IMG/VR virus record: IMGVR_UViG_3300021426_000004
Location: 64,001 to 128,000 of that record
Source of the DNA: a virus
Taxonomy: Duplodnaviria; Caudoviricetes
Direction: 5' to 3' (one strand)
Length of the DNA: 64,000 nt
Below are positions 38,148-56,327 of the stretch, one piece after another. Each line of letters opens with the position of its first letter. Within the stretch, counting starts at the first letter, position 1. Below the pieces are notes generated by a model. The model ran no database searches, had not been told where the DNA came from, and saw nothing but the letters and a program-made list of their open reading frames with translations. A program made the translations under genes and the position numbers.

Positions 38148-38174
38148 CCGCAAGCAAAGCTTGCGGGAATTCGC
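38148..38174 (+). promoter_or_regulatory. Hairpin-AAGC-N8-ATTCGC element (class II), copy 1 of 6
   Basis: CCGCAAGC-aaa-GCTTGCGG-ga-ATTCGC. Other copies at 38572, 40152, 40270, 45702 and 56030. Confidence 0.6.
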
Positions 38175-38231
38175 CTGAATAATAAATCCCTTTGTTGTTC
38201 TATTTCAATGAAATATTTAGGAGGAGTCTCA

Positions 38232-38561
38232 ATGAACATTGAAGCAAAATGGACCGGAAAGTGGCCGTGCCTCTGTCACGGTGAATGGATCATCACCATC
38301 GATGGAGTGAAGGTTGATCTTCCGGAAGAAGTTCGCACCAGCGACATGGGCACCTTTGGTTGCTACCGGAGATGGTGGTTCGAATCAAACTGGGAAGAAG
38401 CCTGGGACAGCTACGAAGACGGTCTGGAATTTCAGCCGTGGGTTGAGGAAAACTCATCGTGGCTTTCCAACCTCCACCTGAGCGAAGAAGATCTTCACGC
38501 TCTCTATGACGCCATTTCCGAAGAAGACTGGCGGCATGGAAGCTGTGGTGGTTGTATCTGA
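38232..38561 (+). CDS. Trp/Cys-rich hypothetical protein
   Basis: AGGAGG RBS before MNIEAKW; WPCLC...SCGGCI. Confidence 0.7.
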   Translation: MNIEAKWTGKWPCLCHGEWIITIDGVKVDLPEEVRTSDMGTFGCYRRWWFESNWEEAWDSYEDGLEFQPWVEENSSWLSNLHLSEEDLHALYDAISEEDWRHGSCGGCI

Positions 38562-38633
38562 TCGGTTCCACAAAGCGAGGACAAGCCTCGCTTTATTCGC
38601 CTAAAAAACAAATTTTGAAAGGAGATCCCATCT

Positions 38634-38837
38634 ATGAAAATCACACTGGCCGAAATCATCAACATCAAGAACGAGATTCGCACAAGAGAGATGTATCTCA
38701 AGAAGATCACAGAGAAAGCCGAGAGGCTTGGTCTGAACAAGAACGATCTTGACATCGCTAATGCCCATATGAAATGGATCAGCGAGAATGAAAAGATCGT
38801 GAAGGAATTCTACAAACCCGCAATGGTTATCCAGTAA
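38634..38837 (+). CDS. Hypothetical protein
   Basis: 67 aa, AAGGAG RBS. Confidence 0.6.
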   Translation: MKITLAEIINIKNEIRTREMYLKKITEKAERLGLNKNDLDIANAHMKWISENEKIVKEFYKPAMVIQ

Positions 38838-39237
38838 AAGCCTGCCCCGGCTGCTGCTTAGCGCCGGTCGGGGTGGATGATTTCTATGCATGTTGATCTG
38901 CAGTCTCGCTGGGACTGCAGACTTATATGCATAGGACCTGAGTTTTCAGCGGCTGGCTGTATAAAAGCTGAAATTCAGACATGTCCTACATACAGGTTCT
39001 GTTTTGCGGAGATTGCCAGCTCTGCTTGACAGAGTTTTGTACGGGTCGGGGTGGTTTAAGGGACTACTCCGATTTTAGCTATTTTCAGCCCGAGCGGGCT
39101 TTGACATGGGACTCCTCCTTTCTGCCTGTGAGTAAGGGACGACTCACAGGTTGGCCGCAATGTTCACGCCTCCATGTTGGTGCGGCTGGATTCGACTGAA
39201 TGTGAACAAAAAAATATTTCGAAAGGAGTTTTAGACA

Positions 39238-39684
39238 ATGAAAAGCGTTGAAATCTACATCGACGGCGCATGCTCAGGAAATCCTGGCCCCATAGGATTC
39301 GCGGCAATCTATCAGGGCAAAAATGGTGTTCTCGGTAAATCCGGTTATGACTCTAACCCTAAGTGCACGAACAACCAGGCAGAACTTCGTGCAGCGATCA
39401 TCGGACTGTCGGCGTTGAAGAATCCCTGTAAGGTGACCTTCTACACTGACTCGCAGTATGTGACCAATGGCTATAAGCATTCTGAGGAATGGCTTACAGC
39501 CGAAGGACGGCTCAACCGTGAGCTTTGGATGGAATTGATTTCAGCCGTGAAGAATGGCAAGCATGAGATTCGCTTTGTGAAAGTGAAAGGCCATGCCAAT
39601 GTTCGGCTGAATGAGATCGCTGACAAGCTCGCAAAAGCAAAGTGCAAAGAAGCGAAGCATCAACTTCTCAAGGAGGGGTATTAA
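39238..39684 (+). CDS. rnhA: Ribonuclease HI
   Basis: IYIDGACSGNPGP, TNNQAEL, YTDSQYV and VKGH...NEIADKLA motifs. Confidence 0.95.
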   Translation: MKSVEIYIDGACSGNPGPIGFAAIYQGKNGVLGKSGYDSNPKCTNNQAELRAAIIGLSALKNPCKVTFYTDSQYVTNGYKHSEEWLTAEGRLNRELWMELISAVKNGKHEIRFVKVKGHANVRLNEIADKLAKAKCKEAKHQLLKEGY

Positions 39685-39881
39685 TGGCAGAGTTCAGCTA
39701 TTACATGGTCGGTAATCAGGTTTATGGCATTATGCCGTGCGGAGACGGAAAGTTCTTTGATTCGGTTACCGACTATGAAAATGCCTATCGCGATGAAGAG
39801 AACGAGATCGTCGATGAGCTCGCTCGTCTCCACTACAACGATGAACCCATTGATTATCCGGAAGACTGGAGGATCGCATAA
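39684..39881 (+). CDS. Acidic hypothetical protein
   Basis: Start MAEFSY overlaps the rnhA stop; AGGAGG RBS. Confidence 0.6.
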   Translation: MAEFSYYMVGNQVYGIMPCGDGKFFDSVTDYENAYRDEENEIVDELARLHYNDEPIDYPEDWRIA

Positions 39882-40120
39882 TGGGACTGCTTGATAATGT
39901 CATTATCTTGCTTCTGATCGTTGGGTCTTTCATTGCTGGCAAAACGATCTCTGATAAATACCATGACAAGATTATATCAGAGTATCAGTATCAACAAAGG
40001 CTTTCAGCGGCGGAAAGGGGAGTAGGCTATGTCGCTCCTCCCGCCAGAAAACGCACCTCTATAGGTGAACCTTTCATGGACAAGCTTAAGAACAATGGCA
40101 AGGCTGTCCAGAAAATGTAA
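39881..40120 (+). CDS. Small membrane protein
   Basis: N-terminal hydrophobic helix; translational coupling. Confidence 0.6.
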   Translation: MGLLDNVIILLLIVGSFIAGKTISDKYHDKIISEYQYQQRLSAAERGVGYVAPPARKRTSIGEPFMDKLKNNGKAVQKM

Positions 40121-40487
40121 TCCTTTTCCTTTCTTTCTTGATTTGTTTTGCCCCGACGCAAGCGTCGGGTGATTCGCCTGAAATAATTCTCTTTTAATAC
40201 TTGTCAGGTTTGAAGGTTTTCTTGGCTTAATTTACCAAAAGCCTTTTCCTTCAAACTTGATTTGTATACGGCGAGTACAAGCCTCGCCTTATTCGCTCGG
40301 GATTGGGGTTCCCATCTCCCCATTTCCTACACAGTGGCGTCCGATACCCACACTAAATACCGCCGTCGGATAGACTGTCTCAGTCGAAAAATGAGAAGCC
40401 GCATACGGGTTGAACAGTATGACTCCCACGTTTTAAACGTGACGACAGAAAACAACTACTACAGAAAAATATGGAGGTACAAACACT

Positions 40488-40847
40488 ATGACTACTTTCG
40501 TTGGAAACATTTCTAAGGCTGCTGAGACCCGCACTGTCGATGTGAACGGAGCCAAGGTTCTGGTTACCGATTTCAACATCGCCGAGAACTATCCCGGTTC
40601 TGACGGGACGCAGAAGGTGCAGTTCTACCGTGTCAGCCTGTGGCGTGACCGTGGTGCCAAGCTGGCGCAGTACCTGACCAAGGGTCGGCCTGTGCAGATC
40701 ACCGGTCGTGTCCGCGCTCGTGCGTACATGGACAAGAACGGCCAGCCTGCTTGCCAGATGGAGATCGCCAATCCGCAGATCACCTTCGTGACTGGGAATC
40801 CGACCGCCGATGGAGAAGAGTTCGTCGGTGATCCCATCGAGGCGTAA
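40488..40847 (+). CDS. ssb: Single-stranded DNA-binding protein (short, no canonical PF tail)
   Basis: FVGNI...FYRVSLW...LAQYLTKGRPVQITGRVRARAY OB-fold pattern. Confidence 0.9.
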   Translation: MTTFVGNISKAAETRTVDVNGAKVLVTDFNIAENYPGSDGTQKVQFYRVSLWRDRGAKLAQYLTKGRPVQITGRVRARAYMDKNGQPACQMEIANPQITFVTGNPTADGEEFVGDPIEA

Positions 40848-40972
40848 TGAAATATCGGGCTCTCCCTTTGGGGGAGCCCTTTATTTTGACAGTGACTGCT
40901 TTAAGAGGATCTGGCGCTGCAAGCCAGGTCCTTTTTTTATACTGCCCCCGGCTTCTTGCAGGAGACAGTATA

Positions 40973-41020
40973 TTCGGTACCTAACTTTGGCGACATTCGA
41001 GAATGACCGTAAAGGAGAGG
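40973..41020 (+). promoter_or_regulatory. Repeated motif, class III (extended form)
   Basis: TTCGGTACCTAACTTTGGCGACATTCGAGAATGACCGTAAAGGAGAGG. Confidence 0.6.
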
Positions 41021-41281
41021 GTATTTTTTAAAACGGCCTGATTTTTTTAATGCCCGTTTTTTTGCAGGAGCGGATATAAAATTTCAGCCGCGAATAAACG
41101 TACCCGAGAGCCCTCACTAAAATCCAGTGGATCGTCTGGCTAGACCTCTGAATTACGTGGGCAATTCTGAATGCCTGAATCTGAGGATGAGTATTTATCG
41201 GTTCAAAACTGAGAGGTATTTTTCCTCCGCTAAAATAGAGGAGGCTAACATGATTGGCCTCAAGAAAAAGGAGATGGGTCT

Positions 41282-41575
41282 GTGAAAGGCAAGATTGGCA
41301 ACCCGCTCGATGAGCAGGAAACCATTATTAACATTGCTCCGAATGTGATCAACAAACGTGCATCGATATACACTACAATGCCCAATATGCTGGCAAAGAT
41401 GTGGAAGATGCAGGAGCAATATCCGGATGATGTGCTGATCGTACATGATGACAAGTACGGTACTGAGTTTTCAGTGCCGAATGACTGGATCAAGATCAAG
41501 CCTAAACGTAAGTTAAGTGATGAACAGCGGGAAGCTGCTGTTGCACGACTGGCTGAATATCGTAACAAGGAATAA
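41282..41575 (+). CDS. Hypothetical protein
   Basis: 97 aa, AAGGAG RBS, GTG start. Confidence 0.65.
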   Translation: MKGKIGNPLDEQETIINIAPNVINKRASIYTTMPNMLAKMWKMQEQYPDDVLIVHDDKYGTEFSVPNDWIKIKPKRKLSDEQREAAVARLAEYRNKE

Positions 41576-41650
41576 TCTGGCCCAATAGTTTTTCTTTATA
41601 GATATAACATTGTATTGGGCTGTCAGGCAAACCTGCAATTGCCTGTTCAT

Positions 41651-41724
41651 GCTCCATTAGCTCAGCAGGTGAGAGCGACGGCCTTATAAGCCGCAGGTCC
41701 TGTGTTCGAATCACAGATGGAGTA
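41651..41724 (+). tRNA. tRNA-Ile(TAT)
   Basis: Cloverleaf with GCTCCAT/ATGGAGT acceptor, CGGC-CTTATAA-GCCG anticodon arm, CTGTG-TTCGAAT-CACAG T-arm. Confidence 0.88.
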
Positions 41725-42241
41725 CGCTGCAGTCGCCGCAATGACAACAAAAAAATAAATTAAAAGAGTGACTGCAACAGGAGCCTCGTTCTCCCCATAA
41801 TTATCTTTTAGGTTTTTCGGCCGCCTTTGGAGGGCGGCCAACTGTCCTTAAGGATTGGGGAGAACGGCTCCTTATAAAAAACAGGGGTACATAATATATA
41901 TGCAGTAACTGCCAGCTGTAACTGTATATATTTATTATATTGTCTTTTAAAAGATAATTTGCATTTATTATTCTCCTTCAGTATATAACTCTCTTTAGTA
42001 AACACCACCAAGAGTGTTTACTAAAGAGAGAGAATAAATAATTATTCCACAGTAATAATCTTCAGTATATATTTATTAATATAATAAAAGGAGTGAGAAT
42101 CTATGTTCACTGAATACTCTAAAATGTCCAAGAAACAGAAAAAGATTATCAACAGCCAGAAAAGAACAACCTGGAACTTCAGTCCCGTTACACGGCTGAA
42201 ACCCAGTAAGAAAATCTACTCCAGAAAGAGAGTGACTGTAT

Positions 42242-42481
42242 ATGAATAATAAAGAAATGTGGTTATTGCTTGCTACTAAGTTTATTTGCTCAACTACTAC
42301 ATGCAAGGCATGCAAGAACTTGCTCGATGCCGAAAAATGTCCTGAACCAGAGTTTTCCCGTGAAGACTATGAAGACGTTTTCCGTTTTATCAGAGACGTT
42401 ACTAAACGAATCGAGAAACTTGAGGATAGTCAATTATCCTTGTCAGAAGACGAGCTTGCTCGGCTGATTATGGAGGGCTGA
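42242..42481 (+). CDS. Small Cys-containing protein with shared acidic C-terminal motif
   Basis: 79 aa; ends LSLSEDELARLIMEG. Confidence 0.6.
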   Translation: MNNKEMWLLLATKFICSTTTCKACKNLLDAEKCPEPEFSREDYEDVFRFIRDVTKRIEKLEDSQLSLSEDELARLIMEG

Positions 42482-42483
42482 AA

Positions 42484-42690
42484 ATGATATATGATATCGT
42501 CAAAGAGATCTGTAATAAGTATTTTATATGCAGTGATGGTTGTCCTCTGAAAACAGAGAATGGTTATATCTGCAACAAGGCTGACAAACCCACTGAAGAA
42601 TTGTTACTTATATTATCTTCTCTTGGGTATAACTTTAATGATCAGATTAATATTGTTGAAGATGATATAGAAAGTATACTTAATGAATGA
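42484..42690 (+). CDS. Small Cys-containing protein with shared acidic C-terminal motif
   Basis: 68 aa; ends INIVEDDIESILNE. Confidence 0.6.
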   Translation: MIYDIVKEICNKYFICSDGCPLKTENGYICNKADKPTEELLLILSSLGYNFNDQINIVEDDIESILNE

Positions 42691-43215
42691 CCTCTATCCC
42701 TTGTAATATATACTCTTAAGGGTTATTTTACTCTATAAATATGAACCTATTCTCTATCATTAATAATAATAATATATATATACTCTTTATTATGAATATT
42801 TATTCTTCTTTAGAAATTACTCTATAAATAATTACTTTTCCTTTAAATATTAATCATTTATTTTCCTTTAGTAGGTATTTATATCTTTCTTTATTATCTT
42901 GATATTTATTATCCTTCAGTAGTTATTTATTCTTAATTACTGTTTTGATATTTATTTGAATGATTGGTATTTATAAGTATTTATTCTTGTGATATTTATT
43001 GGTCTTTAGTAGAGAACTATTCTTTTTAATAAATCTTATCCCTATAATAAATCTTATCCCTGTAATAAATCCTATCCATATAATTATTCTTTCTAATAAA
43101 TCCTATCTCTATAATATCTCTATAATAATCATTTCTCTTAATAAACAATCTCTATAATAAATCTTATATCTTTTAATAAATAATCTCTTATATATTCCAT
43201 TCTTTATTTATTTTC
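42691..43215. repeat. Very AT-rich non-coding region with iterated ATAAATC(T/C)TATC motifs; candidate replication origin
   Basis: No ORF. TATTTAT repeats in the left half, and AATAAATCTTATCCCT(A/G)T tandem and degenerate copies at about 43028-43180 in the opposite orientation. Confidence 0.55.
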
Positions 43216-43235
43216 AGCGGGGGAGGTAACTAAAT

Positions 43236-43634
43236 ATGACCCTTACGGCTTTTAAGGAAATACACAAGAATGATACAGCCGGTCAGTTGCTTCAGCTGCT
43301 GACTGATGAAGTATTCTTAATCAAATTCGATCAGACAAATAAAACTACAGCGCAGCTTGTGTATCATAATCAAAAACTGTTTGAATATTACTCAAGTGAA
43401 TTGAAGTATCACAGTGACAGGTTTAACTGGATAGTCGATCAGCTCAGAATAAAGATGACTGCTCCTGAAGATATTCTGAATGGGCTAAAACACTGTAGCA
43501 ACTATAAGGATATCAGCGACTGTAATGGATGTCCTTATAAAGACGGAGACTATGCAAGATGCGGCTGCGAAAATAAGTTAATGCAAGACACTTTGAAATT
43601 ATTTTGCGAGGTGACTGGAAATGAACATGAATAA
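43236..43634 (+). CDS. Hypothetical protein with C-terminal Cys cluster
   Basis: GGAGG RBS; C...CNGCPY...C. Confidence 0.65.
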   Translation: MTLTAFKEIHKNDTAGQLLQLLTDEVFLIKFDQTNKTTAQLVYHNQKLFEYYSSELKYHSDRFNWIVDQLRIKMTAPEDILNGLKHCSNYKDISDCNGCPYKDGDYARCGCENKLMQDTLKLFCEVTGNEHE

Positions 43635-43772
43635 CGAGGAAATTAATGAGTTTAAAATTTATTGGCAGGATCTTAACAGTGACTGTCAGCAGCGACTGTT
43701 TGAATTCCTGGGAGAAAATGGAAACTATGACGTTTATCCTATTGTAACAATTGAAAGGCTGGAAGAAGAACA

Positions 43773-44126
43773 ATGAATCTTGTTTCTATATCAAAAGAGG
43801 ATTTGGACTTGCTTATGAATCGTGAGGCTTTTCTGGATATCAGAGGCTGCTCCAATGAAGAAATAGTCGAGTTGGTTAAATTAATCGATCCTGAGCTGGA
43901 ATACTGCAATATAATCGATTATTTATCAACAGATGGTTATTACGAAAGTTTTATCGGCTGGGATGTTCTGTTTATTGATAATGATAAGAAACTAAATGCA
44001 TACAGAGGAGATACTGCTAAAAATATTCTGAGTCAAAGACATATCATTAAACCAATTCTTACAGAAATTACAATTGATGACGATGATATTTTGTCAACAA
44101 TTGATGGAGGAAACGGCAGTGACTGA
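43773..44126 (+). CDS. Hypothetical protein with shared acidic C-terminal motif
   Basis: Ends EITIDDDDILSTIDGG. Confidence 0.6.
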   Translation: MNLVSISKEDLDLLMNREAFLDIRGCSNEEIVELVKLIDPELEYCNIIDYLSTDGYYESFIGWDVLFIDNDKKLNAYRGDTAKNILSQRHIIKPILTEITIDDDDILSTIDGGNGSD

Positions 44127-44331
44127 ATATCAGAAATTTCAGCTGCAATGGATGGCTGATCATTCATATTCCCTTGATGATCTGATTGACGAATTGGAAA
44201 AAAATATGACCACTGAAGAATCTATCAGGAATCTTTTCTATACATGGCAGAACGAAATCGGCTTCAGCGGCTCGATTTGGCCATGCGAATCAGAATGGAA
44301 CGATTGTGAAAGGAGCTTAAACCATGAATGA
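44119..44331 (+). CDS. Hypothetical protein
   Basis: GTG start after GGAGG; overlaps neighbours. Confidence 0.55.
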   Translation: MTEYQKFQLQWMADHSYSLDDLIDELEKNMTTEESIRNLFYTWQNEIGFSGSIWPCESEWNDCERSLNHE

Positions 44332-44692
44332 TATTTTTACTATGCTTAACAGTATGAACAGAATGCTTGATCCTTCGGAAATGCCAAGAAATAATTACAC
44401 TCCGCTGGAGAAAGATAAGATTGATACAATTATGTCCAATGCCAAGAATTTCGAGAAAGGTAATAGGTTCGGCGGGCTGTATTATTATGCAGAGTTCGAG
44501 AACGGATATGGAATCGATATTATCAAGCATAACGGCTCCTATGGCGGTGATGAAGACTTGTTTGAAATCGCTGTCATGAAAGATGGAGATGTTTGCTACG
44601 ATACTTCGATTACAGATGATGTTGTTGGCTGGCTGACTTCAGAAGAGGTTATGTCTTATGTATTCAAAGTAAAAGAACTTAAAACGGAGTGA
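44324..44692 (+). CDS. Conserved-looking phage hypothetical protein
   Basis: FENGYGIDII...SYGG...LFEIAV pattern. Confidence 0.65.
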   Translation: MNDIFTMLNSMNRMLDPSEMPRNNYTPLEKDKIDTIMSNAKNFEKGNRFGGLYYYAEFENGYGIDIIKHNGSYGGDEDLFEIAVMKDGDVCYDTSITDDVVGWLTSEEVMSYVFKVKELKTE

Positions 44693-44985
44693 CTGGAATG
44701 AATACTGAAGCAAAAAAGGATACTGGAAAAGCGCAACTCTCTCTCGTACCTTTGCAGATTCTTTATGATATAGCCAGGGTACGGGAATTTGGTTTGATCA
44801 AATATAAAGATCCTGATAACTGGAAGAAAGTTGAGCCGAAAAGATACAGGGATGCAATGATGCGTCATATGTGTGCTTATATTGAGGACCCGGATGGAAT
44901 AGACGAAGAAAGTGGTCTTCCTCATTTATGGCACCTTGCTTGTAACGTGGCTTTTCTTTGCGACCTTGAAAAGAAACGACAATAA
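44689..44985 (+). CDS. dATP/dGTP diphosphohydrolase domain protein (DUF5664-like)
   Basis: KxDxGK-xxLSLVP, FGxxKY-xxxNW, RH, and DEESGLPHLxH motifs. Confidence 0.85.
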   Translation: MTGMNTEAKKDTGKAQLSLVPLQILYDIARVREFGLIKYKDPDNWKKVEPKRYRDAMMRHMCAYIEDPDGIDEESGLPHLWHLACNVAFLCDLEKKRQ

Positions 44986-45001
44986 TAAAATGGAGTAAAA
45001 A

Positions 45002-45313
45002 ATGCTTGAAGAATTTTTGAATCATAAATTATTTATCGTTATTCCAAGAAATAGAATTGACAGACTTGATGAACTGGATGAGCGAATTGGTCATGTGAAA
45101 TTCCCAAGTGGTGCAACTATGCCAACGTATGTAAAACAACTCTTGAAAAATTGCAGTGAAATTGGGATCATTGGTGACGGATTTGGTCGTATTCTTTATT
45201 CAGTACAATCGTATGGAACTGTAAATTATGTATCTATCGATGAATTTCTTGGAAAGGAAATCACAATAGACGAAGAAGACTTTGACTTAATTTTCGAGAA
45301 GGAGAAAATATGA
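45002..45313 (+). CDS. Hypothetical protein with shared acidic C-terminal motif
   Basis: Ends EITIDEEDFDLIFEKEKI. Confidence 0.6.
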   Translation: MLEEFLNHKLFIVIPRNRIDRLDELDERIGHVKFPSGATMPTYVKQLLKNCSEIGIIGDGFGRILYSVQSYGTVNYVSIDEFLGKEITIDEEDFDLIFEKEKI

Positions 45314-45433
45314 TTCCAACGCCGCAAACTGTTATATTCCATATAACAAGTACAATAATGGCTCTTGGTTATCTTGGGTTGGTTGTTTTCTTGATCCTTT
45401 ATATTTCGTACCTGATCATTAAGAGGTGAAATT

Positions 45434-45670
45434 ATGTTTGATGAAAAACTTGCTCTGAAAATGCTTGTTGAAGACAGGAATACTTATATCAAAAGAGCTA
45501 TTGAATTTACTCAGGGTTTTCTGGATAGAGGAATGGATGAAGCTGCAGCTATGACAATCATGACAGCTGGAGACTGTCTTCGTGAATTGGAAGGAACTAT
45601 GGAGTACGTAAAACAACTTCAAGGTTTCAACGAAAACGGATATCCGAGATATGTTCCTGTTTTCAATTAA
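45434..45670 (+). CDS. Hypothetical protein
   Basis: GAGGTG RBS. Confidence 0.6.
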   Translation: MFDEKLALKMLVEDRNTYIKRAIEFTQGFLDRGMDEAAAMTIMTAGDCLRELEGTMEYVKQLQGFNENGYPRYVPVFN

Positions 45671-45781
45671 TAAGCCTTTGATTTTACAAAATACTCCAGA
45701 GGTCGCCGCAAGCGGCGACTGATTCGCTAGGCCTTTCTTTCCTTTCTTTCTTGGCCTTTCCCTACGAAATTGAGGTGAAAT

Positions 45782-46006
45782 ATGTATAAAGTTTGTGTAA
45801 ACCGAGGCGACAGAACCATTCTATTGGCTTCGTTTGAATCTTTGGAAAAAGCAAGACGTTTTACGTCTCATGATTATTATCCGGAAGAAGATGATGATGT
45901 TTGTATTCATGCCAATGAAATGTATATTGACAATAAAGATACAGCATTTCCGGACATCAATGTGAATGAAGTTAAATATTTGCCAAATGATGAACTTCCA
46001 TTTTGA
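45782..46006 (+). CDS. Hypothetical protein ending NDELPF
   Basis: GAGGTG RBS; downstream of a class II element. Confidence 0.6.
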   Translation: MYKVCVNRGDRTILLASFESLEKARRFTSHDYYPEEDDDVCIHANEMYIDNKDTAFPDINVNEVKYLPNDELPF

Positions 46007-46014
46007 GGTTAAAA

Positions 46015-46946: not shown

Positions 46947-47336
46947 ATGAACAAGATTATTATTTGCGGAAATCTTACTGCAGATCCGGTTATCACAGAA
47001 GTGGAATACACCAATAGGACTACCGGTGAGATTATCAAGACAAAGGTTTGTAACTTTACAGTTGCTTGTGATGATGGATTTGGTGAATCCAAAATGACAC
47101 AGTATTTCAGGGTTAACTCTTGGCGCGGTCAGGGTGAAACATGCATGAAATACCTTAAGAAGGGGCGCGAAGTCCTTGTTGAAGGGCCTGTAAAGCTGAA
47201 TACTTATGTTGACAAGAACAATGTTGCACGGTCTTCTATGGAAGTCAGGGCAAACAGTATTCAGTTCCTGCGTGGCGGTAAAAACGCGAATCCACCTGAA
47301 GAAAATGCTCCAGAAGAAGAAGAAGCACTATATTGA
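46947..47336 (+). CDS. ssb: Single-stranded DNA-binding protein (second copy)
   Basis: MNKIIICGNLTADP...NFTVA...YLKKGREVLVEG pattern. Confidence 0.92.
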   Translation: MNKIIICGNLTADPVITEVEYTNRTTGEIIKTKVCNFTVACDDGFGESKMTQYFRVNSWRGQGETCMKYLKKGREVLVEGPVKLNTYVDKNNVARSSMEVRANSIQFLRGGKNANPPEENAPEEEEALY

Positions 47337-47407
47337 CAGACATTTACTAATCAGCCGAGGGTGACTGGTTTGATGGGGCCAGTCACCCTATCTTTATGAG
47401 GTGATTT

Positions 47408-48756: not shown

Positions 48757-48759
48757 TAA

Positions 48760-48947
48760 TGAACGGTGGTGGAAAAGGTAGACACTGATGGCTGGGTAAG
48801 GACAAGGCAGACTGAAACGGCGTGAAGGTCACCAATCTTAAATCGGTAAAGACACGCCTGCTGGTACACACTAAAGCCCACGAGCCGTGAATCCGGTGAT
48901 TGTTGTGTGTGCAAGTCCATGTGGGGTGCAAATCCTCACCCGTTCAA
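48760..48947 (+). ncRNA. tRNA-like RNA with large insertion (family copy A)
   Basis: TGAACGG/CCGTTCA acceptor, GTGGAAAAGGTAGACAC D-arm, GTGGGG-TGCAAAT-CCTCAC T-arm. Confidence 0.7.
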
Positions 48948-48981
48948 TCAATCAAACACATCTCAAAAAGGAGAAAATATT

Positions 48982-49548
48982 ATGGATTTGGGAGCCTACG
49001 CACAAATTGAAGATCTTGACAAAATCATGGTAGACAACGGAATCACCGTTCCAAGACTGCGCGGACTTAGGTTGATGAGTCAGGAAAAAGCAATTTCTGC
49101 GAACGATATTTCAGAATCTGCCAATCAATTGGCCCTTCAAGAATGTGAATCTCTCTGTGAATCAGACTTTCGGATCAATGCCTATTGTTTCGAATGTTCA
49201 GACAGAACCCGTCGAATCAAGCGAAAATACCTGAAGTATGACACCGATCAATTCACACCTGTCGGAGTTAGATGGGATCGTATTCATGGTAAAAAGCGCA
49301 AGAAGTTCAAGTATGTCATCAAAAACGCTTATCGGCGCAATCGTGAACAGCTTGAATTATTCAATCGTTATTGCGGTAGGCCTGACATTCTTTATATCCA
49401 TGCAAGAATTGGCGGCGGAAACTGGCCGTATTACTGTAACGAGGTGAAAGATCAGCCGTGGTTCATCTGCAGGATCGATGATGCATTTGATTCCACTTAC
49501 TGTGATATTTACGCCACGATCAAACCGCCGGAAGAAAGCAATGACTGA
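48982..49548 (+). CDS. Hypothetical protein
   Basis: Start MDLGAY after AAGGAG; HARIGGGNW motif. Confidence 0.65.
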   Translation: MDLGAYAQIEDLDKIMVDNGITVPRLRGLRLMSQEKAISANDISESANQLALQECESLCESDFRINAYCFECSDRTRRIKRKYLKYDTDQFTPVGVRWDRIHGKKRKKFKYVIKNAYRRNREQLELFNRYCGRPDILYIHARIGGGNWPYYCNEVKDQPWFICRIDDAFDSTYCDIYATIKPPEESND

Positions 49549-49566
49549 TGTTCAGTAAATAATAAT

Positions 49567-49675
49567 ATGCGGTGGTGGAAAAGGTAGACACGATTAGCAC
49601 GGAGACATGCTTCCTGATGCCGTGCACGGCTAAACGGAGAAAAATCCATGTGAGGTGCAAATCCTCACCCGCTTA
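49567..49675 (+). ncRNA. tRNA-like RNA (family copy B)
   Basis: GCGG/CCGC acceptor, same D-arm as copy A, GTGAGG-TGCAAAT-CCTCAC T-arm. Confidence 0.7.
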
Positions 49676-49891
49676 GAATTACTGTTTTGTGAGGTGCTAT
49701 ATGGACGAAACGACAGATTACGACATCGAGCAAGATTTATTGGATTTAATGGTCGAGTATTTATGCGAAGATCATAGCAATGATGATTTGATATCGTTGG
49801 CAAAAAAAGCAATACAATATTCACTAGGTGATTAAAACAACACAAAAAAGTTGGTTTGTTTTAATATAGAAGTATTTGTCGAAGATATGAG

Positions 49892-50116
49892 ATGACAATA
49901 ATGGATATAATGAGTGAGTTTGTTGTTTCAAGAGGATCTGGAAAAACTGCAACCTCTTATATGATCGGTTTAAGCAAACTGTACAATTCTGGAAAAATAA
50001 GTAAAGAAGATTACTTTACAATGAGAGGCGCAGCTTTGGTTCTTATGTTCGGGATGTCGGAAGAAGATGCTTTAAACCAGATTGCAAAAGAGCTTGAGGA
50101 AGACGATTTCAGGTAA
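49892..50116 (+). CDS. Small hypothetical protein
   Basis: 74 aa; contains SRGSGKT. Confidence 0.5.
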   Translation: MTIMDIMSEFVVSRGSGKTATSYMIGLSKLYNSGKISKEDYFTMRGAALVLMFGMSEEDALNQIAKELEEDDFR

Positions 50117-50234
50117 GTAAAGAAACTGGCAAATCTAAAAAAAGGGGGTGGTGCTATGCAGAAAGCAGTTGATGAATTTAATCGTAAATATACTGTTCCT
50201 CAGTAGCATTGCCCAAAAACAGGGCTATAAAATA

Positions 50235-50465
50235 GAGCGGTGGCGGAATAGACAGCTATCACTCCTGCGGAGAGTAGATAAGGACGTGGCTCTTATTTAA
50301 GTACACCTGATAACAGGGGCGCAGGTCACGGCTGGTAAAACAGGTTTTTTCGGATTTGTACCTGTAATAGTAGACGCTGGAACGGCAAGATTGAGTCATT
50401 ATTATCCGGGGTTGTTTTAACAACCAAAAGACTGATCATGTAAGGTGCAAATCCTTACCCGCTTA
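50235..50465 (+). ncRNA. tRNA-like RNA with D-loop insertion (family copy C)
   Basis: GAGCGG/CCGCTT acceptor; GCGGAATAG...[insert]...AGTAGACGC; GTAAGG-TGCAAAT-CCTTAC. Confidence 0.65.
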
Positions 50466-50651
50466 TAAAAATTTTTAAATAATATTTTTGAAACCGCACA
50501 GCATACTATGGGAGACGGCACGGCGTAGAGTGTTTGTCAGCACTGAAACCGGGCATAAACGGATCGACCCATGCTTCAGGCGATCTTTCGGGGTTGTAAA
50601 GTCATGATCGGGTTGACATCCTGAATGGCTTAGTTTGACGAAGATCAACGC

Positions 50652-50804
50652 GAGTGGTGGCGGAATAGACATCGGATAAGGATGCATACGATTCCGATGG
50701 TAAAGCTGGTTCAGCAAGAGTAGACGCTTATAACGTAAGATTCCGACTTCTTGATTTCAAGAAACGTTAAGGAATCATACGAGGTGCAAATCCTCGTCCA
50801 CTCA
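50652..50804 (+). ncRNA. tRNA-like RNA with D-loop insertion (family copy D)
   Basis: GAGTGG/CCACTC acceptor; GCGGAATAG...AGTAGACGC; ACGAGG-TGCAAAT-CCTCGT. Confidence 0.65.
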
Positions 50805-50845
50805 TCTTCAAACTAAATTTCAAGAGAGGGAAAAGATGTCGCAAT

Positions 50846-51049
50846 ATGGGACTGAATAAATACGGACCAGGACGTTGGGAAGATGTCTCCAGCTGGCCAC
50901 TGCCAAAGCTGGTAACGGAAATTCTTAATATCGAAAAAGAAAAAGAAAAAGAATATAAAGCATATATGCGTCGTTGTATGTTTCTTGATGAGCAATATGA
51001 AATAATTGAAAAGGAACTTTCAAGAAGAAAGATTTATATGGATGAATAA
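50846..51049 (+). CDS. Hypothetical protein
   Basis: 67-aa ORF between RNA genes. Confidence 0.5.
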   Translation: MGLNKYGPGRWEDVSSWPLPKLVTEILNIEKEKEKEYKAYMRRCMFLDEQYEIIEKELSRRKIYMDE

Positions 51050-51122
51050 GGGGAATTAGCTCATTCAGCAGAGCACTGCCTTTGCACGGCAGAGGTGACG
51101 GGAGCAAAGCCTGTATTCTTCA
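51050..51122 (+). tRNA. tRNA-Ala(TGC), degenerate
   Basis: CTGCC-TTTGCAC-GGCAG anticodon arm, G3:U70 pair, non-canonical T-loop AGCAAAG. Confidence 0.6.
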
Positions 51123-51546
51123 ATTGTCCATTAGGACAGCTTTGTATAATCAGCACAAAGTAAAATAAGCTGATTGGCACAGTGAACGTGACTGTTAAAA
51201 ATATGCCTGACCAGCATATGCCGTATTAAAGCGTGCGGTTAACGCAATCAGCCTACGCTGTGGCCGTTGATAACGGGGCTCTTATGTCTTGCAGGTAGGT
51301 ATAAACCGAGTGTCTGGGCCGATGCTACTCATGCCCAGCCGAAACGCACAAAGACTTGCGCCCAGAGTAGGGGTAGGTGAACGGTAACCTGAGAGGCTGC
51401 CGACACGAAGAAGCAAGTTGCCGGATTTACATCCCTGCGGTTTTCCGGCTTTATGTCATTATCTCTAGCCTGCTAATAACGGACAGTGACTTTCAGCCAA
51501 TGCCCCCTGAGCGGGCCGTAGAAGGGGGATTGGCACTTAATGATAA

Positions 51547-51849
51547 ATGAGGTATGTTATGTTTAATATAGGTGATCATGTAAGAATAAAAGAAGATGCT
51601 GATAAGATAGAATCAGGCTTTTGTTACTTTGCTGAAAGTATGAAATCATTCCTTGGACATGAAGATACTATTTGCGGAGAACCTAAGGATGGAGTTTATG
51701 CTCTTAGTAATTGTAAAAGTAGCTATATAAACTATGGACAATATGCTAATTATTACTGGTTCGATGAAAATTGGTTAGAACCAGCAGATAATATTGATTT
51801 CAGCCTCGAAGAAAATGAAATAATTGAAATGATTAAAAAGGAGGTGTAA
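51547..51849 (+). CDS. SH3/KOW-like small protein with shared acidic C-terminal motif
   Basis: MFNIGDHVRIK...WLEPA; ends FSLEENEIIEMIKKEV. Confidence 0.6.
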   Translation: MRYVMFNIGDHVRIKEDADKIESGFCYFAESMKSFLGHEDTICGEPKDGVYALSNCKSSYINYGQYANYYWFDENWLEPADNIDFSLEENEIIEMIKKEV

Positions 51850-51851
51850 AA

Positions 51852-52361
51852 ATGAATAATGTAAAGTATGTAGCATCATGGAGACCAGAATCTGAAAAGT
51901 ATTATACTGCTGATGCGCAGAAAGTTGCAGATGAAATTTTCGCTCTTGGAAAGAATCCTGATACAAAGGAAATTCTCGATATGGCAAGGAACGAAAATAC
52001 TGAAATTCACAAAATTATTGATTGGGATGATAATTCAGCTGCTGAAAAATACAGATTGGAACAAGTACGTCATATTCAGAGAGACTTGCAAATAGTTGAA
52101 ATTGGTCTCAACAAAAAGGAACCAACTAAGAAATTGGAAGTTCCTGTTCGTATGTTTTATCATTTGCATGGCGAAACTGGCTATCGCCCTACTCCTTTGA
52201 TAATTCAAGACGAAGATTTGCATAAGAAATTACTTCGCACAGCAAAGCTTGAATTGGATTCATATTTAAAGAAATATGCAATTTTAACAGAAATGCATCC
52301 TTTGATTGAAGCAATTAATAGTAAGCTCATCGAGCTGAAAATTTTTGATGAAGTAAGTTAA
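51852..52361 (+). CDS. Accessory protein of the RAMP/pentamer-array locus
   Basis: 169 aa with ILDMAR...IHKIIDWDDNSAAEKYRLEQVR motif; ends 6 nt before the array. Confidence 0.7.
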   Translation: MNNVKYVASWRPESEKYYTADAQKVADEIFALGKNPDTKEILDMARNENTEIHKIIDWDDNSAAEKYRLEQVRHIQRDLQIVEIGLNKKEPTKKLEVPVRMFYHLHGETGYRPTPLIIQDEDLHKKLLRTAKLELDSYLKKYAILTEMHPLIEAINSKLIELKIFDEVS

Positions 52362-52367
52362 AATATA

Positions 52368-53048
52368 CCTGTCGGTCTGATTAAGGATGCAATGCATCCT
52401 AAAATAGCAAAGTGCATCATAACTGAACACAAGTTACGATAGGACATAATAGCACAAAACATTGCATCTTTACTCAGGCCGACAGGCTAACAATAGATCA
52501 TAACAGTACAACATAGATTACTATAACTCATTTTAATACACAATTGTGCCAACTCTGCGGTTGGCATAATTGGAGACTTGTTCTCCGTAGATTAGGATAG
52601 GATAGGATAATTTATGAAATCTTTGCATGGAATAGAACATTACAGTATAAAACAAGTCTTCAATTGTGCTAATCGCACAAAGCATAATACAGGATATTCA
52701 AGAATAATACATGACGGCGTAGGACACAATAATACTACCAATCCATTTGTGTGATTGGTACAATAAGTGGCTTATCAGTCCTAAGATAACATATCGTATT
52801 TTAACACATCATAATATAGAACATTATTGAAATAAGCTTCTTATTGTGCCAGTGGCACAAATATACAATTGCATAGCCAATAATTGAATAGAACAGGATA
52901 CATTATTATAAAATACTATAACATTAATTGAGTAATTGGTATACTAAGAAGTCTATGACTTCTTAAGTATAGAACATATCGCTCTATAATAGAATATTTC
53001 TCTATAGCATAAAATAAAACACGAATAGACTTCTTGGTGTGCCAATTG
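52368..53048 (+). ncRNA. Array of about seven (AYA-NN)n pentamer tracts separated by long pairing stems; candidate guide-RNA array
   Basis: 5-nt periodicity (e.g. ata-GC-aaa-GT-gca-TC-ata-AC-tga-AC-aca-AG-tta-CG-ata-GG-aca-TA-ata-GC-aca-AA). Imperfect inverted repeats at 52368-52394/52460-52486, 52557-52582/52651-52676, 52746-52775/52832-52861 and 52933-52956/53025-53048. Confidence 0.8.
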
Positions 53049-53097
53049 CGTAAAGAAAAGATTTAAACAAATAATAAAGATTAATAAGGAGATTATT

Positions 53098-53754
53098 ATG
53101 CCGACTAAAGCTAAAGAAAATGCAAATCTGATTGATATTGAAGCTAAGATTAAAAGGATGCTTGTTACCATTGAAGGTGAAGGCGATCTGATTCTTAATA
53201 AAATGAACGCTCGCAATGAACGTGCACTGACTGCAGATGATCGTAAGAGCATTAAAGAAGTACCTAATTTCTGGGAAGATGTTATTACTGCAATTCATTG
53301 GCGCGATCCTCTTCCTGTAAAAGACACATATACGGAATGCAATGAAGAACTTATGCATAGTCTACTCAAAGATAACGCTCCGTCTTTAAGTGCGTTTGCG
53401 TTGAAAAGAAGTTTCTGTGATGCTGTTGTTCGTAATGAAATTGATAACTATAAAACAAAATTCGAAAATGCAATTAATGTTACATCTGAAAATGGAAGAG
53501 AACTTATTCCTATTAAGTTTGCAGGTTGGGAGGCCGAAAAGAGGCTTATGAGTCCTAAGCGTGGTAAGCCGATTAATGTTGTTCTGAATCATTTCCATAA
53601 CTGGTCTGCAAAATTTATGGTAACTTATCTGGATCATGTTTATAGTCGAGATGAGATTCTGAATATTATTAATCTTGCAGGATTCGGCCTTGGAATTGGC
53701 AGTGGTCGGACAAGCGGTTATGGTCGTTATCATATTACAAATGTTGAAGTGTAA
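53098..53754 (+). CDS. Stand-alone RAMP (Cas7/Csm3-like) protein
   Basis: N-terminal strand VTIEGEGDLILN, LSAFALKRSF (cf. IPxSSLKG), and C-terminal Gly-rich loop GLGIGSGRTSGYGRY. Confidence 0.8.
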   Translation: MPTKAKENANLIDIEAKIKRMLVTIEGEGDLILNKMNARNERALTADDRKSIKEVPNFWEDVITAIHWRDPLPVKDTYTECNEELMHSLLKDNAPSLSAFALKRSFCDAVVRNEIDNYKTKFENAINVTSENGRELIPIKFAGWEAEKRLMSPKRGKPINVVLNHFHNWSAKFMVTYLDHVYSRDEILNIINLAGFGLGIGSGRTSGYGRYHITNVEV

Positions 53755-54044
53755 TATTTTAATTATTGTATGAAAGTGTTTATATCCGGTGCTACAGCGG
53801 TTAATCTGTAGTATTTATCGAGGATGTAGTGTAACGGTAACATAAAGGATTGTCGTTACGAAGAAGCAAAATGCCGGTTTATATATATATATATGTTTTA
53901 CCGGCTTTAAACCGAACGCCAGAGAGAGTCTGCCATCCTCTCTATCTACGGAGAACGTTATCCGGAAGGCGAGAAGACATGCGGCAGGGCAGAATGTAAG
54001 ACGTGTCAGCCAGGTTTACACACAATGCGGTTTACTGGCGTAAC

Positions 54045-54118
54045 GGGGCATTGGTTCAACGGTAAAACGGTTCCCTTGCAAGGAACGGTTAGCAGTTCGA
54101 TTCTGCTATGCTCCACCA
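54045..54118 (+). tRNA. tRNA-Ala(TGC)
   Basis: Cloverleaf, GTTCC-CTTGCAA-GGAAC, G3:U70, encoded CCA. Confidence 0.92.
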
Positions 54119-54214
54119 CAACCGAGGGCGACGTTAGGGCGGTTGTAAAATAAACTCTGAACAAGTCCCTGTCAAAAGCCGGCAAATGTTTGACATACTT
54201 GACGTCGTAGTTAT

Positions 54215-54285
54215 CGAGGATGTGGTGTAACGGTAACACGCGTCGCTTGGGCCGACGAGTAGCAGTTCAACTCTGACATCTTCGA
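54215..54285 (+). tRNA. tRNA-Pro(TGG)
   Basis: CGAGGAT/ATCTTCG acceptor, CGTCG-CTTGGGC-CGACG; T-arm slightly irregular. Confidence 0.75.
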
Positions 54286-54396
54286 CTTTAACCGCCGATG
54301 AGTGTCGTACGTTTTGGCCAGCCTTGCGAAAGCAAGTGGGCGGTATATAAATTGAACTCCTTGTCTGTGTGTAGGTGCGACTGCACATAGCTGTAT

Positions 54397-54480
54397 GCGG
54401 ATATGGCGAAATAGGCAGCACGCTCGGGTCTTAAAAACCCGTGGGTTAATCCCGTGTGGGTTCAAGTCCCACTATCCGCA
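54397..54480 (+). tRNA. tRNA-Leu(TAA)
   Basis: GCGGATA/TATCCGC acceptor, CGGGT-CTTAAAA-ACCCG, long variable arm. Confidence 0.9.
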
Positions 54481-54575
54481 CTGCCTCTGTGCTTTTACCA
54501 GATAGCGCAGAGGACATCGTTTATAATATCCTTTCTTGCTCCCTGACGGCCGGGAGCATAATAGACCGTCATTTT

Positions 54576-54678
54576 GCTTCTGTAACTTAATGGGAAAGTT
54601 TGGAGTGCTCCCTGAGATAGTGGGATACAACCGGAACACATGTCAACGGTAATTCAGGTTCGAGTCCTGGCGGAAGCA
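54576..54678 (+). ncRNA. tRNA-like RNA with expanded anticodon region
   Basis: GCTTCTG/CGGAAGC acceptor, AACT...AGTT D-arm, CAGG-TTCGAGT-CCTG T-arm; no canonical anticodon arm. Confidence 0.55.
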
Positions 54679-54729
54679 CGTTTTCATACATTCAGATTAA
54701 TAATTATTAAAAGAAAAGGAAGTGTCACT

Positions 54730-55071
54730 GTGAAAATTACTGGTTGGACAAATTTTGAAACTAACAAATATGAAGATGTCTTTGGTATTCCTGGAAACCC
54801 CAGACTTACAAAGAAACAGGAAGAAGAAGTAGAAAATATTATCGTCGCTGAAATGAAGAGCAAGGGCTATAAATTCAATGGTATTTATCATCAGCAGGGT
54901 GATTTCGGCTGTCCTGTTATTGATAATAAGTATATATACGCTGTTTCTATGAGAAAATGGGGCAATCTCATGGCAAAGGTATGTGATTTGCCGGATGATG
55001 ATAAACTCGCATACGTGACATGGGCTTGGAGTACACCTGTTGGTATTACGCCTGTTTATCCGGAGGGTTAA
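54730..55071 (+). CDS. Hypothetical protein
   Basis: GTG start after AAGGA; HQQGDFGCPV...SMRKWGNLMA. Confidence 0.6.
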   Translation: MKITGWTNFETNKYEDVFGIPGNPRLTKKQEEEVENIIVAEMKSKGYKFNGIYHQQGDFGCPVIDNKYIYAVSMRKWGNLMAKVCDLPDDDKLAYVTWAWSTPVGITPVYPEG

Positions 55072-55073
55072 AT

Positions 55074-55262
55074 ATGAATTCTATAGAAGAACTGGATAAA
55101 TATTTTGACGTGCATCCTGAAATGAAAAAATATTGGGAAGATATAAAAGATTATATCATACACCAGCAGGATAAAATTAATTCGTTAGATGATGAGTTAT
55201 TTGTGACGAGAAATGTTGGTATCAAACTTACCAGAGAATTGAAAGAACTAAAGAGTAGGTAA
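55074..55262 (+). CDS. Hypothetical protein
   Basis: GGAGG RBS before MNSIEE. Confidence 0.55.
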   Translation: MNSIEELDKYFDVHPEMKKYWEDIKDYIIHQQDKINSLDDELFVTRNVGIKLTRELKELKSR

Positions 55263-55560
55263 TATCAGCTTCGGCTGTTATTATACAAATGGAAGGTAAG
55301 CGAATGGCAGACGTGTCAGAAAGAAAGTTCGGCAATCCGAGAATGCTCAGGCTCCAACGCCTATGCCTGATAAGAGAACACCGAGAGTGTACACAAAAAC
55401 TTAGCATAAAAGAAAACTCGGGCTAATCAAAAGAGCTTTCGCCTTTCTATTTATTATTCCGAGCCTTGCGGGATAAAACAGCTGTTAACTCCGAGGAAGA
55501 CAAGTACGACGGTAATACAGCACACATGAAGTCATGCGATAAAGGTATGGCTTCTCTTAA

Positions 55561-55634
55561 TGGGGATTCATATAACAGTAGTATACGAGACTTTGACTCT
55601 CGGAGCGAAGGGGCGGCACCTTCATCCCCAGCCA
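55561..55634 (+). tRNA. tRNA-Gln(TTG)
   Basis: TGGGGAT/ATCCCCA acceptor, CGAGA-CTTTGAC-TCTCG, encoded CCA; atypical T-loop. Confidence 0.8.
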
Positions 55635-55690
55635 GATTATTAAATCAATGATTATCATATTAAAAAAATAATGAAATGGAGGGATGACAA

Positions 55691-56014
55691 ATGAGTAACT
55701 ATTGTATGTACGAAGCAATAAAAGGAAATGTTCCTGATTGTGACAGGACATGCCAGGGAGACTGCTGTGCTTATTATTACGTAGATCCTATTGCAAAAAT
55801 AATAACCGAATGGAAAGCAGAAGCTGGAGTTACGGCTCCAGTTCTTTGGAAGGTTAATTACTTAAAGAACGAAATCAATATCAGCACTACAAGGCCAGGA
55901 TTTCTTATTGGTGGACACGGAAGACTCATTAATAAATATAAAAGTAAGTTCGATGAAGAGCTGCACGGAAAAATTAAGAACATTGAATTTACAGAATGTG
56001 ACGATTATGCATGA
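55691..56014 (+). CDS. KH-domain protein (ribosomal protein S3-like KH motif)
   Basis: INISTTRPGFLIGGHGRLI resembles the S3 KH signature IxIxTARPGxxIGxxG. Confidence 0.6.
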   Translation: MSNYCMYEAIKGNVPDCDRTCQGDCCAYYYVDPIAKIITEWKAEAGVTAPVLWKVNYLKNEINISTTRPGFLIGGHGRLINKYKSKFDEELHGKIKNIEFTECDDYA

Positions 56015-56327
56015 ATAAGATAGTGAAAGGCCGCGGCAAGCCGCGGCTTATTCGCATAATATTCCTTTTCTTTCCTGCTTTCACGTTCCCAGTATTTTCA
56101 GGATAGAAAAAGGAATTTTATATATACGGGGTGTTGCGTAAAAACTTAATTCAAACCTCGCCAGTTTGAGCCTCATACAATTCAATAGTGAGAATTTAAT
56201 AATGCCTTGTGCCTTGTTAAAGACTCACCTCCTATTCATAAAGAGTTTGGATAGCAACTCTTGAAACTCTCGTGCTATCCGCTAACCATCTTATTTAAAA
56301 AATTTGATTAAGGAGCGTGATTAGAAG

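Follow-up and report, generated by a model that had tools for sequence, protein, structure and literature searches.

How does a phage with several RNA polymerases (RNAPs) direct each of them to its own genes, and can a hairpin be part of the address? The question is raised by a hairpin element that recurs between the genes of an uncultured gut phage, known from a complete 148,117-bp record (IMG/VR IMGVR_UViG_3300021426_000004). The window, that is, the whole stretch of DNA analysed here, comprises bases 64001-128000 of that record (64,000 nucleotides, nt), and its numbering is used unless genome positions are specified. An original prediction, made from the letters of the window, had noticed six copies of the element and proposed that they serve as structure-plus-sequence promoters for one of the phage RNAPs or, alternatively, as RNA processing sites. 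We find that the element has a fixed anatomy, that its stems covary, that it occupies a zone separate from those of two other signal classes, that it is conserved in related phages, and that its positions follow a logic with respect to genes. Weighing these observations, we lean towards the view that it is a hairpin-dependent middle-class promoter, probably read by a 906-residue polymerase encoded upstream of it.

Anatomy and frequency of the element

The pattern AAGC-N8-ATTCGC has six exact matches in the window, at 38157, 38583, 40160, 40279, 45710 and 56038. All are on the plus strand and, as had been claimed, all are intergenic; 0.18 matches were expected, and six were reached in none of 100 shuffles. 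A scan of the whole record, which the original prediction had proposed, found no match beyond these six and none to a reversed control pattern. A relaxed scan of both strands of the genome, allowing one mismatch in ATTCGC behind a folded upstream segment, added only a degenerate seventh copy at 38033. The ATTCGC hexamer by itself is not enriched (33 observed versus 38 expected); the distinctive feature is the combination of hairpin, loop and hexamer. All copies lie between called genes, in a region of which just 62% is coding; our own gene calls came from a crude caller, which lost the YpsA/SLOG gene at 36853-37362 to a minus-strand open reading frame.

Each of the six sites falls within a perfect inverted repeat with a stem of 6-9 bp and a loop of 3-7 nt, and the stem sequences of all copies in the window differ from one another. 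Folded as DNA, the hairpins have energies of -5.3 to -9.9 kcal/mol (z = -1.4 to -4.8). The absence of a U-tract behind the hairpins, originally taken to set them apart from ordinary terminators, holds more widely: no T-tract directly follows the stem at any of the six exact copies, nor at the copies in relatives. A terminator consensus scan lists, among the elements, only the degenerate copy at 38033, via TTGATTCT. An Rfam 15 search of the window at the gathering score returned six tRNAs only and no match to the element.

The copies, all on the plus strand, vary on this common plan. The degenerate one (38033..38057; 6-bp stem, CAAG loop, TTG, ATTCTC, then CTGAA) opens a tandem pair that precedes the first middle gene. 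Element 1 (38148..38174) has an 8-bp stem, an AAA loop, GA and ATTCGC, and lies 57 nt upstream of the start of the gene at 38232-38561. Element 2 (38572..38600), with a 9-bp stem, an ACAAG loop and ATTCGC, stands 10 nt past a stop codon, with 33 nt left to the next start. Elements 3 and 5 share a design of 7-bp stem, CAAG loop, TG and ATTCGC; element 3 (40152..40177) is the first of a tandem pair upstream of a single-stranded DNA-binding protein (SSB) gene, and element 5 (45702..45727) lies 54 nt upstream of the gene at 45782-46006. Element 4 (40270..40296; 6-bp stem, TACAAGC loop, TT, ATTCGC) is followed by a conserved leader and the SSB gene. Element 6 (56030..56055; 7-bp stem, CAAG loop, TT, ATTCGC) is upstream of a block of Ubl/E2/JAB/E1 and reverse-transcriptase genes.

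Pyrimidine-rich tracts of the CCTTTTCCTTTCTTTCTT type, at 40120-40150, 45731-45765 and 56060-56085 on the plus strand, adjoin several of the elements, before or after the hairpin. We considered the CCTTT pyrimidine-rich tracts beside elements 1 and 3-6 as a possible part of the signal and set them aside: their position is variable, the copies are few, and they have no clear role.

Covarying stems and a shared frame in related phages

Searches with the 906-residue protein led to thirteen loci on eleven distinct contigs, at 58-66% identity. A megablast search of 37-47 kb against a deposited phage collection found no close relative. Wherever the downstream sequence suffices, the layout repeats itself: units of the early class, described below, surround the polymerase gene and are followed by GC hairpins without T-runs. 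In the relatives, the stem base is followed 4 nt on by CAT-N-R-Y-G-A-A, giving the core A-N-CAT-N-R-Y-GAA. When copies are aligned at the stem base, a shared frame emerges, with an A at stem+3 in 26 of the 27 relatives' copies and in all seven here; next come a 4-nt core, which is TCGC in this phage and CAT-N in the relatives, and Y-G-A-A, where conservation ends, 10-14 nt past the stem. A constant frame with an altered core is what one would expect of a polymerase and a promoter that change in step.

The stems themselves were said to differ in sequence while keeping their pairing, and the relatives extend that claim. Pairing was scored by scripts, since the differing stem lengths kept MAFFT from holding loop and core in register: 26 of 29 curated elements have distinct 6-bp stems, all fully paired, against 40% pairing when partner arms are shuffled. 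The CAAG loop is found in this phage and at loci L007, L008 and L016, and varies in L009. Its conservation, set against the free loops of the early class described below, points to recognition of the hairpin itself.

Three polymerases and three signal classes

Plus-strand genes extend from ~26.7 kb of the window through the record end to 20.3 kb of the record, with minus-strand structural genes elsewhere. The genome encodes three RNAPs, one within the tape-measure protein and two further two-barrel types of 906 and 939 residues. The first is built into the N-terminal 3,676 of 5,057 tape-measure codons present in the window (1..11028, minus strand), with RYP at residue 896 and DFDGD at residue 951, and is a candidate virion RNAP for the early class. 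The second, a probable two-barrel single-chain RNAP (32896..35616, plus strand), is the candidate reader of the middle-class element. It carries the invariant motifs VRYPHG and GADxDGDAV (GADYDGDAV in this phage); R399, P401, D451, D453, G454 and D455 are invariant in 10 homologues, and its DYDGD aligns with DVDGD of the 939-residue enzyme. Its identity as an RNAP, which we regard as probable, is argued from weak profile matches together with these invariant catalytic motifs. The family is very rare, with 8 representatives among 1.84 billion protein clusters. The third RNAP (62307..64000, with the gene running to 65126 in window numbering; plus strand; DVDGD; phrog_8308) is a second non-virion two-barrel enzyme and the clearer superfamily member, since the part within the window matches Pfam RdRP above the cut-off. 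Among the proteins scanned, we noticed no RNAP of the T7-like kind; the candidates carry RxP, DxDGD and Pfam RdRP matches.

A genome-wide list of GC-rich hairpins shows a sharp switch from hairpin-plus-T-tract units to the middle-class element. The ~11 early units occur only at 26.9-37.9 kb and the seven middle-class copies only at 38.0-56.1 kb, in agreement with the earlier remark that the element first appears downstream of the 906-residue RNAP gene. The early units (26925..37900, plus strand) each consist of a GC hairpin, a T-tract and ATTTTTAYG, number about one per gene, and account for all plus-strand hairpins of that interval; examples of their T-runs start at 27353, 28335, 29275, 31728, 32666, 35652, 36451 and 37877. 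All relatives conserve them strongly; G·U pairs are tolerated in their stems, and their loops vary freely. From their sequence, they look like ordinary terminators fused to a candidate early promoter of the tape-measure-borne virion RNAP, a counterpart of the AT-rich promoters of the Thermus phage P23-45. The early region also encodes a YpsA/SLOG-family protein on the plus strand, in the gene that our caller lost (Pfam E = 4e-23).

The late class is a 26-nt motif, GACATTCGrrAA-N3/4-CCGTAAAGGAG (that is, GACATTCGAAAA, 3-4 nt, CCGTAAAGGAG), found at 40992..41017, 48262 and 61527 on the plus strand and at 15053-15078 and 26305-26330 on the minus strand. Two copies outside the window, at genome positions 142097 (plus) and 59811 (minus), make seven in total on both strands. 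The minus-strand copies stand at the start of late operons, the opening gene of the structural block included, and the motif is a candidate promoter or leader for the 939-residue RNAP. It ends in a ribosome-binding site, and its plus-strand copies are preceded by a GGTACC palindrome.

The gene for the 906-residue protein lies inside the early-class zone and that for the 939-residue RNAP downstream of the middle class. Three polymerases are thus matched by three non-overlapping motif classes, and we count this match in favour of a promoter.

The last early unit is separated from the first middle element by a single-copy boundary element (37937..37984, plus strand) composed of a C-run, ATTTTTTCGGC, a G-run, ATTTTTT and CGCTTCGCT. 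It is highly conserved, recurring in L007-L019, L034 and L035 as a C-run, ATTTTTCGGC, a G-run, ATTTTTT and CGCTYCGCT, and in sequence it looks like a terminator. One idea is that it may halt early transcription or a stepwise entry of the DNA, given that the early region makes up ~8% of the genome. The 3' half of the boundary element is also present in otherwise unrelated-looking viral contigs, nine of them near-identical (L032-L033, L037-L043) and one further (L036). Contig L034, which was found through the boundary element, has no clear middle-class copies.

Further records bear on the link between polymerase and element. G001 (IMGVR_UViG_3300021399_000008; 116,328 bp, complete; loci L023 and L026-L031) shares the structural module, tape-measure protein, JAB/E1 and reverse transcriptase with this phage and carries a homologue of the 939-residue RNAP at 49% identity. 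The whole early module, the 906-residue RNAP and all three motif classes were not found in G001. Loci L022-L025 were obtained through the first middle gene, and searches of three records (those of L022 and L024, and G001) gave no homologue of the 906-residue protein. This joint absence is compatible with a link between polymerase and element, as weak support because the entire early module differs.

Pairing in the stems: DNA or RNA

The middle-class stems contain no G·U pair among 180 loop-proximal pairs (six per element, 30 elements), as against 18 among 269 (6.7%) in 45 early-class terminators of the same loci (Fisher p = 1e-4), a contrast that carries a detection bias in that many elements were first found as perfect repeats. 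The early-class hairpins were located by their T-tract motif and folded with G·U allowed. Motif-first searches for the element that likewise permitted G·U yielded no wobble-containing members. A complete lack of G·U is expected of a DNA hairpin or cruciform, or of a structure formed in both strands, and not of an RNA hairpin.

This result bears on the processing site that had been offered as the alternative to a promoter, and on RNA-level functions in general: cleavage by an endoribonuclease (for example, Cas6/RAMP-like), 3' stabilisation, or nut/put-like antitermination. The element recalls the shape of type I CRISPR repeats, a GC hairpin with a tetraloop followed by ~8 conserved nt, and a conserved loop on variable stems is also typical of protein-bound RNA hairpins. 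An enzyme might be sought in a 218-residue gene at 53098-53754 (plus strand) with a weak RAMP match. That match is below the cut-off and not significant (Pfam E = 0.019), no tie between the gene and the element was found, and we rejected it as the processing enzyme. Cas6 enzymes, moreover, normally read a fixed stem sequence. The elements match no Rfam family, do not lie at ribosome-binding sites, and form tandem arrays of 2-4 copies that would be unusual for nut-type sites. With 0 G·U pairs in 180, against 6.7% for RNA hairpins of the same genomes, and no significant Cas6-like gene, the processing alternative is weakened, and we retain an RNA-level role as an unlikely explanation.

Position: start signal or end signal

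Distances to the flanking genes do not separate a 5' from a 3' signal. Elements 2, 3, 5 and 6 sit 10-31 nt past stop codons, which weighs against a promoter in that it suits a 3'-end signal equally well. Gene order is more informative. This phage and L009 have one order in common: last early unit, boundary element, two to four tandem middle-class elements, homologous first middle gene. A terminator ahead of that gene would switch the whole class off; a promoter is expected there. In six phages, the element occupies the gap between one and the same pair of genes, immediately ahead of the SSB gene. The leader that separates it from this gene, about 190-200 nt (40297-40487, plus strand), is conserved in sequence in this phage, L007 and L014 and, by analogy with T4 gene 32, is a candidate autoregulatory 5' untranslated region. 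It contains complementary TCCGA and TCGGA segments and, at its start, a non-conserved hairpin.

The SSB gene (40488..40847, plus strand) forms a one-gene unit extending from elements 3/4 to an ordinary hairpin-plus-T-tract terminator just past it (40857..40889, plus strand), and the unit closes in the same way in L007. It follows that the middle polymerase has normal terminators and that the element marks the other end of the unit. An ordinary terminator-like hairpin (47358-47389, plus strand) likewise follows a second SSB gene (46947-47336, plus strand; Pfam SSB E = 6e-21). Other start signals for the middle genes were not apparent: sigma-70-like sites are not enriched in 37.8-57 kb (57 versus 54.6 expected), and no other recurring motif was seen across the middle-region intergenic gaps, late-class copies excepted.

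These observations were weighed against the possibility that the element is a polymerase-specific terminator or pause site, an RNA hairpin with conserved bases that halts a two-barrel RNAP without need of a U-tract. Such a signal would be akin to the conserved 26-nt motif that reportedly terminates transcription by the virion RNAP of P23-45, which has a sequence-conserved class of terminators. Hairpins are common to the early and middle classes and in the early class clearly belong to a terminator, and the positions just past stop codons are those a terminator would take. Release would nonetheless be unfavourable at the middle-class element, since the 8-14 nt past the stem are GC-rich in relatives (G-G-A-G-C-A-T-G) and would form a strong hybrid. 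The middle region already has ordinary terminators at 40857 and 47358; tandem copies before the first middle gene, themselves downstream of the terminator-like boundary element, would silence the class; the stems lack the G·U pairs of the real terminators nearby; and no promoter would be recognisable for the middle genes. We consider this reading improbable, in about the same degree as an RNA-level role.

It is also conceivable that the element is a composite, in which a generic RNA insulator or terminator hairpin merely adjoins an independent short linear promoter and takes no part in promoter recognition. A precedent exists in P23-45, where a terminator hairpin abuts an AT-rich promoter at one site (TTS1 at 340, TSS2 at 346), and the early class of the present phage is built likewise. 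Were the modules independent, both their spacing and the loop should wander, as is the case in P23-45. The elements show instead a constant spacing of hairpin and core (N8 counted from the loop in this phage, 4 nt counted from the stem base in its relatives) and a loop sequence conserved between phages, and they lack both G·U pairs and a U-tract. A composite is accordingly doubtful, and we give it little weight.

A DNA site unrelated to transcription, such as a single-strand initiation (priming) signal or another replication or packaging structure, would account for strictly Watson-Crick stems among replication genes (RNase H, two SSB genes) and around an AT-rich repeat region, but is very improbable given copies that are all on the coding strand on both sides of that region, lie at gene boundaries only, keep their positions relative to genes, and replace early-class units. 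The AT-rich gap itself (42691-43235, 545 nt) has many short direct repeats (CTATAATAAATCTTATCC-like) and could be a replication origin or iteron region. Further along the middle region, four non-coding units on the plus strand (48757-48981, 49549-49700, 50301-50470 and 50700-50845) begin with GGTGGTGGAAAAGGTAGACAC and end with GAGGTGCAAATCCTCACCC; they have no Rfam match.

A proposed hairpin-dependent promoter for the middle class

Relative to the original prediction, the case for a structure-plus-sequence promoter has gained comparative evidence in the class switch after the gene for the 906-residue protein, the covarying stems, their Watson-Crick pairing and the 5' position. Several observations weigh against it. 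Besides the detection bias in the G·U contrast and the ambiguous distances already mentioned, elements 4 and 6 stand 192-273 nt from the next start. One sub-lineage (L010, L014, L019) has a fixed arm sequence and imperfect pairing, with two coding-strand pyrimidine mismatches. Nearest-neighbour DNA energies reveal no template-strand preference (mean difference -0.1 kcal/mol); template-strand loops (CTTG, GNNA) and the tandem G·A mismatches of the L010/L014/L019 variant might, on general grounds, favour that strand.

The assignment of a reader faces difficulties of the same kind. The 906-residue protein matches Pfam RdRP at E = 7.7e-4 (18.7 bits, under the curated cut-off of 23.8), and four of its 10 homologues match with E up to 0.1. 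An hhalign comparison with the 939-residue RNAP gave 0.7% probability, and Protein Data Bank (PDB) sequence and profile searches with the 906-residue protein came back empty, finding no similarity to any solved RNAP. Its AlphaFold model has a mean predicted local distance difference test (pLDDT) score of 48.6 and was kept out of a fold search because that score is too poor. No two-barrel RNAP is known to use a hairpin promoter. Finally, we infer every functional step: promoter function, formation of the hairpin in DNA and its reading by a protein, including the choice of the 906-residue polymerase over another factor.

If the element is a hairpin-dependent promoter, its working parts can be proposed from the conserved positions. 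The hairpin, short (6-9 bp) and of GC-rich DNA, would usually present CAAG as its loop in the coding strand and CTTG in the template, and would be combined with a single-stranded or melted sequence at a fixed distance. The recognition sequence would comprise the invariant A at stem+3, the 4-nt specificity core (TCGC here, CAT-N in relatives) and Y-G-A-A, and transcription would probably start in or just past Y-G-A-A, about 10-14 nt after the stem. In the sequence of events that we envisage, the tape-measure-borne virion RNAP would transcribe the early units, with the 906-residue two-barrel RNAP made as an early product. This enzyme, alone or with an early cofactor, would recognise the extruded hairpin and core, leading to transcription of the replication and accessory genes at 38-62 kb. 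The 939-residue RNAP would be among the middle products and would then serve the late-class motif.

A wider hypothesis, which has a real chance of holding, if a somewhat smaller one than of failing, is that the 906-residue protein represents a new, very rare family of two-barrel single-chain RNAPs needing promoters that are extruded as DNA hairpins. It would form the middle tier of a cascade of three polymerases (virion, 906-residue and 939-residue RNAP), each with its own signal, and the core would shift with the polymerase among related rumen phages. Two-barrel RNAPs are relatives of cellular RNAPs and of RNA-interference polymerases. As far as we know, hairpin promoters come from one phage group and one polymerase family. 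If the hypothesis is true, two-barrel enzymes would have reached independently a strategy known only from the T7-like virion RNAP of N4, and a structured DNA promoter in a second, unrelated polymerase family would suggest a recurring way for phages to separate their transcription from the host's. Such a promoter would tie activity to DNA supercoiling or genome entry. Matched variants of polymerase and promoter (TCGC versus CAT-N cores) would offer a natural set for studying how two-barrel RNAPs find promoters without sigma factors, and could serve as new orthogonal expression parts. The map of three classes also yields a temporal programme, open to testing, for this uncultured gut phage of 148 kb.

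Comparison with known systems

The element shares with intrinsic terminators a GC-rich intergenic hairpin on the coding strand; it differs from them in its conserved loop, its conserved non-U core, and the absence of a U-tract and of G·U pairs, and the genuine terminators nearby look different. The lambda nut site (boxA/boxB) and the CRISPR-repeat substrates of Cas6 are closer in having a small hairpin, a conserved loop and a conserved linear segment. Order and spacing are different in nut, and the present element has a higher copy number and can occur in tandem. Unlike CRISPR repeats, its copies are dispersed, their stems vary, and there is neither an array nor a significant Cas6 gene (only the sub-threshold RAMP match noted above). 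Promoters of the T7/T3/SP6 type offer a parallel in their single conserved frame with few specificity positions that differ between related phages, as TCGC and CAT-N do here. They are linear and double-stranded, have no structural element, and belong to an unrelated polymerase family.

The parallel with N4 drawn by the original prediction holds as a likeness of mechanism. Short GC-rich inverted repeats are common to both systems, as are conservation of bases in the loop and a constant spacing to bases downstream, in a phage with its own polymerases (PMC4496689). In the early promoters of N4, variable stem bases matter for pairing only (PMC4496689). The parallel fails in polymerase type and in hairpin geometry. 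The virion RNAP of N4 is a T7-like single-subunit enzyme, and the candidate here is of the two-barrel type. In N4, a stem of 5-7 bp carries a 3-nt loop, centred at -11, whose purines are conserved; the present element has a 6-9 bp stem, usually a 4-nt CAAG loop (3-7 nt in others) and a conserved core of 6-12 nt past the stem. Three early promoters lie close to one end of the N4 genome, as compared with seven middle-class copies here. An N4-type promoter is further characterised by a hairpin that is extruded from supercoiled DNA and stabilised by SSB on the template strand, and by a start at a set distance downstream; as to extrusion, the lack of G·U pairs in the present element is an indirect hint. 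Because the N4 enzyme is T7-like and the geometry is different, we do not regard the element as a member of the N4 promoter family.

Among two-barrel enzymes, no motif was found for the virion RNAP of the crAss-like phage phi14:2, and the YonO promoter is undefined. The closest parallel in overall organisation is P23-45, whose pair of two-barrel RNAPs works from two promoter motifs, each short and different from the other, directly upstream of starts (PMC10770324). Its promoters, TTATTCCTTTA and CTAGGGGC (about -16 to -8), have no hairpin in the published upstream sequences. By-eye comparison of the elements with the published lists of gp64-type (GC-rich, CTAGGGGC) and gp96-type (AT-rich, TTATTCCTTTA ending at -1) promoters found no CTAGGGGC and only TTATTC in common, shared with elements 2, 4 and 6. 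The likeness lies in the arrangement. P23-45 has a tape-measure-fused virion RNAP, gp96, and a separate two-barrel gp64 encoded within the region that is expressed first. Successive regions of its genome use different short promoter motifs, two in number, and its early units are bounded by conserved hairpin-plus-T terminators that can abut the next promoter (PMC10770324). To this arrangement, the present phage adds a third RNAP and a third motif class.

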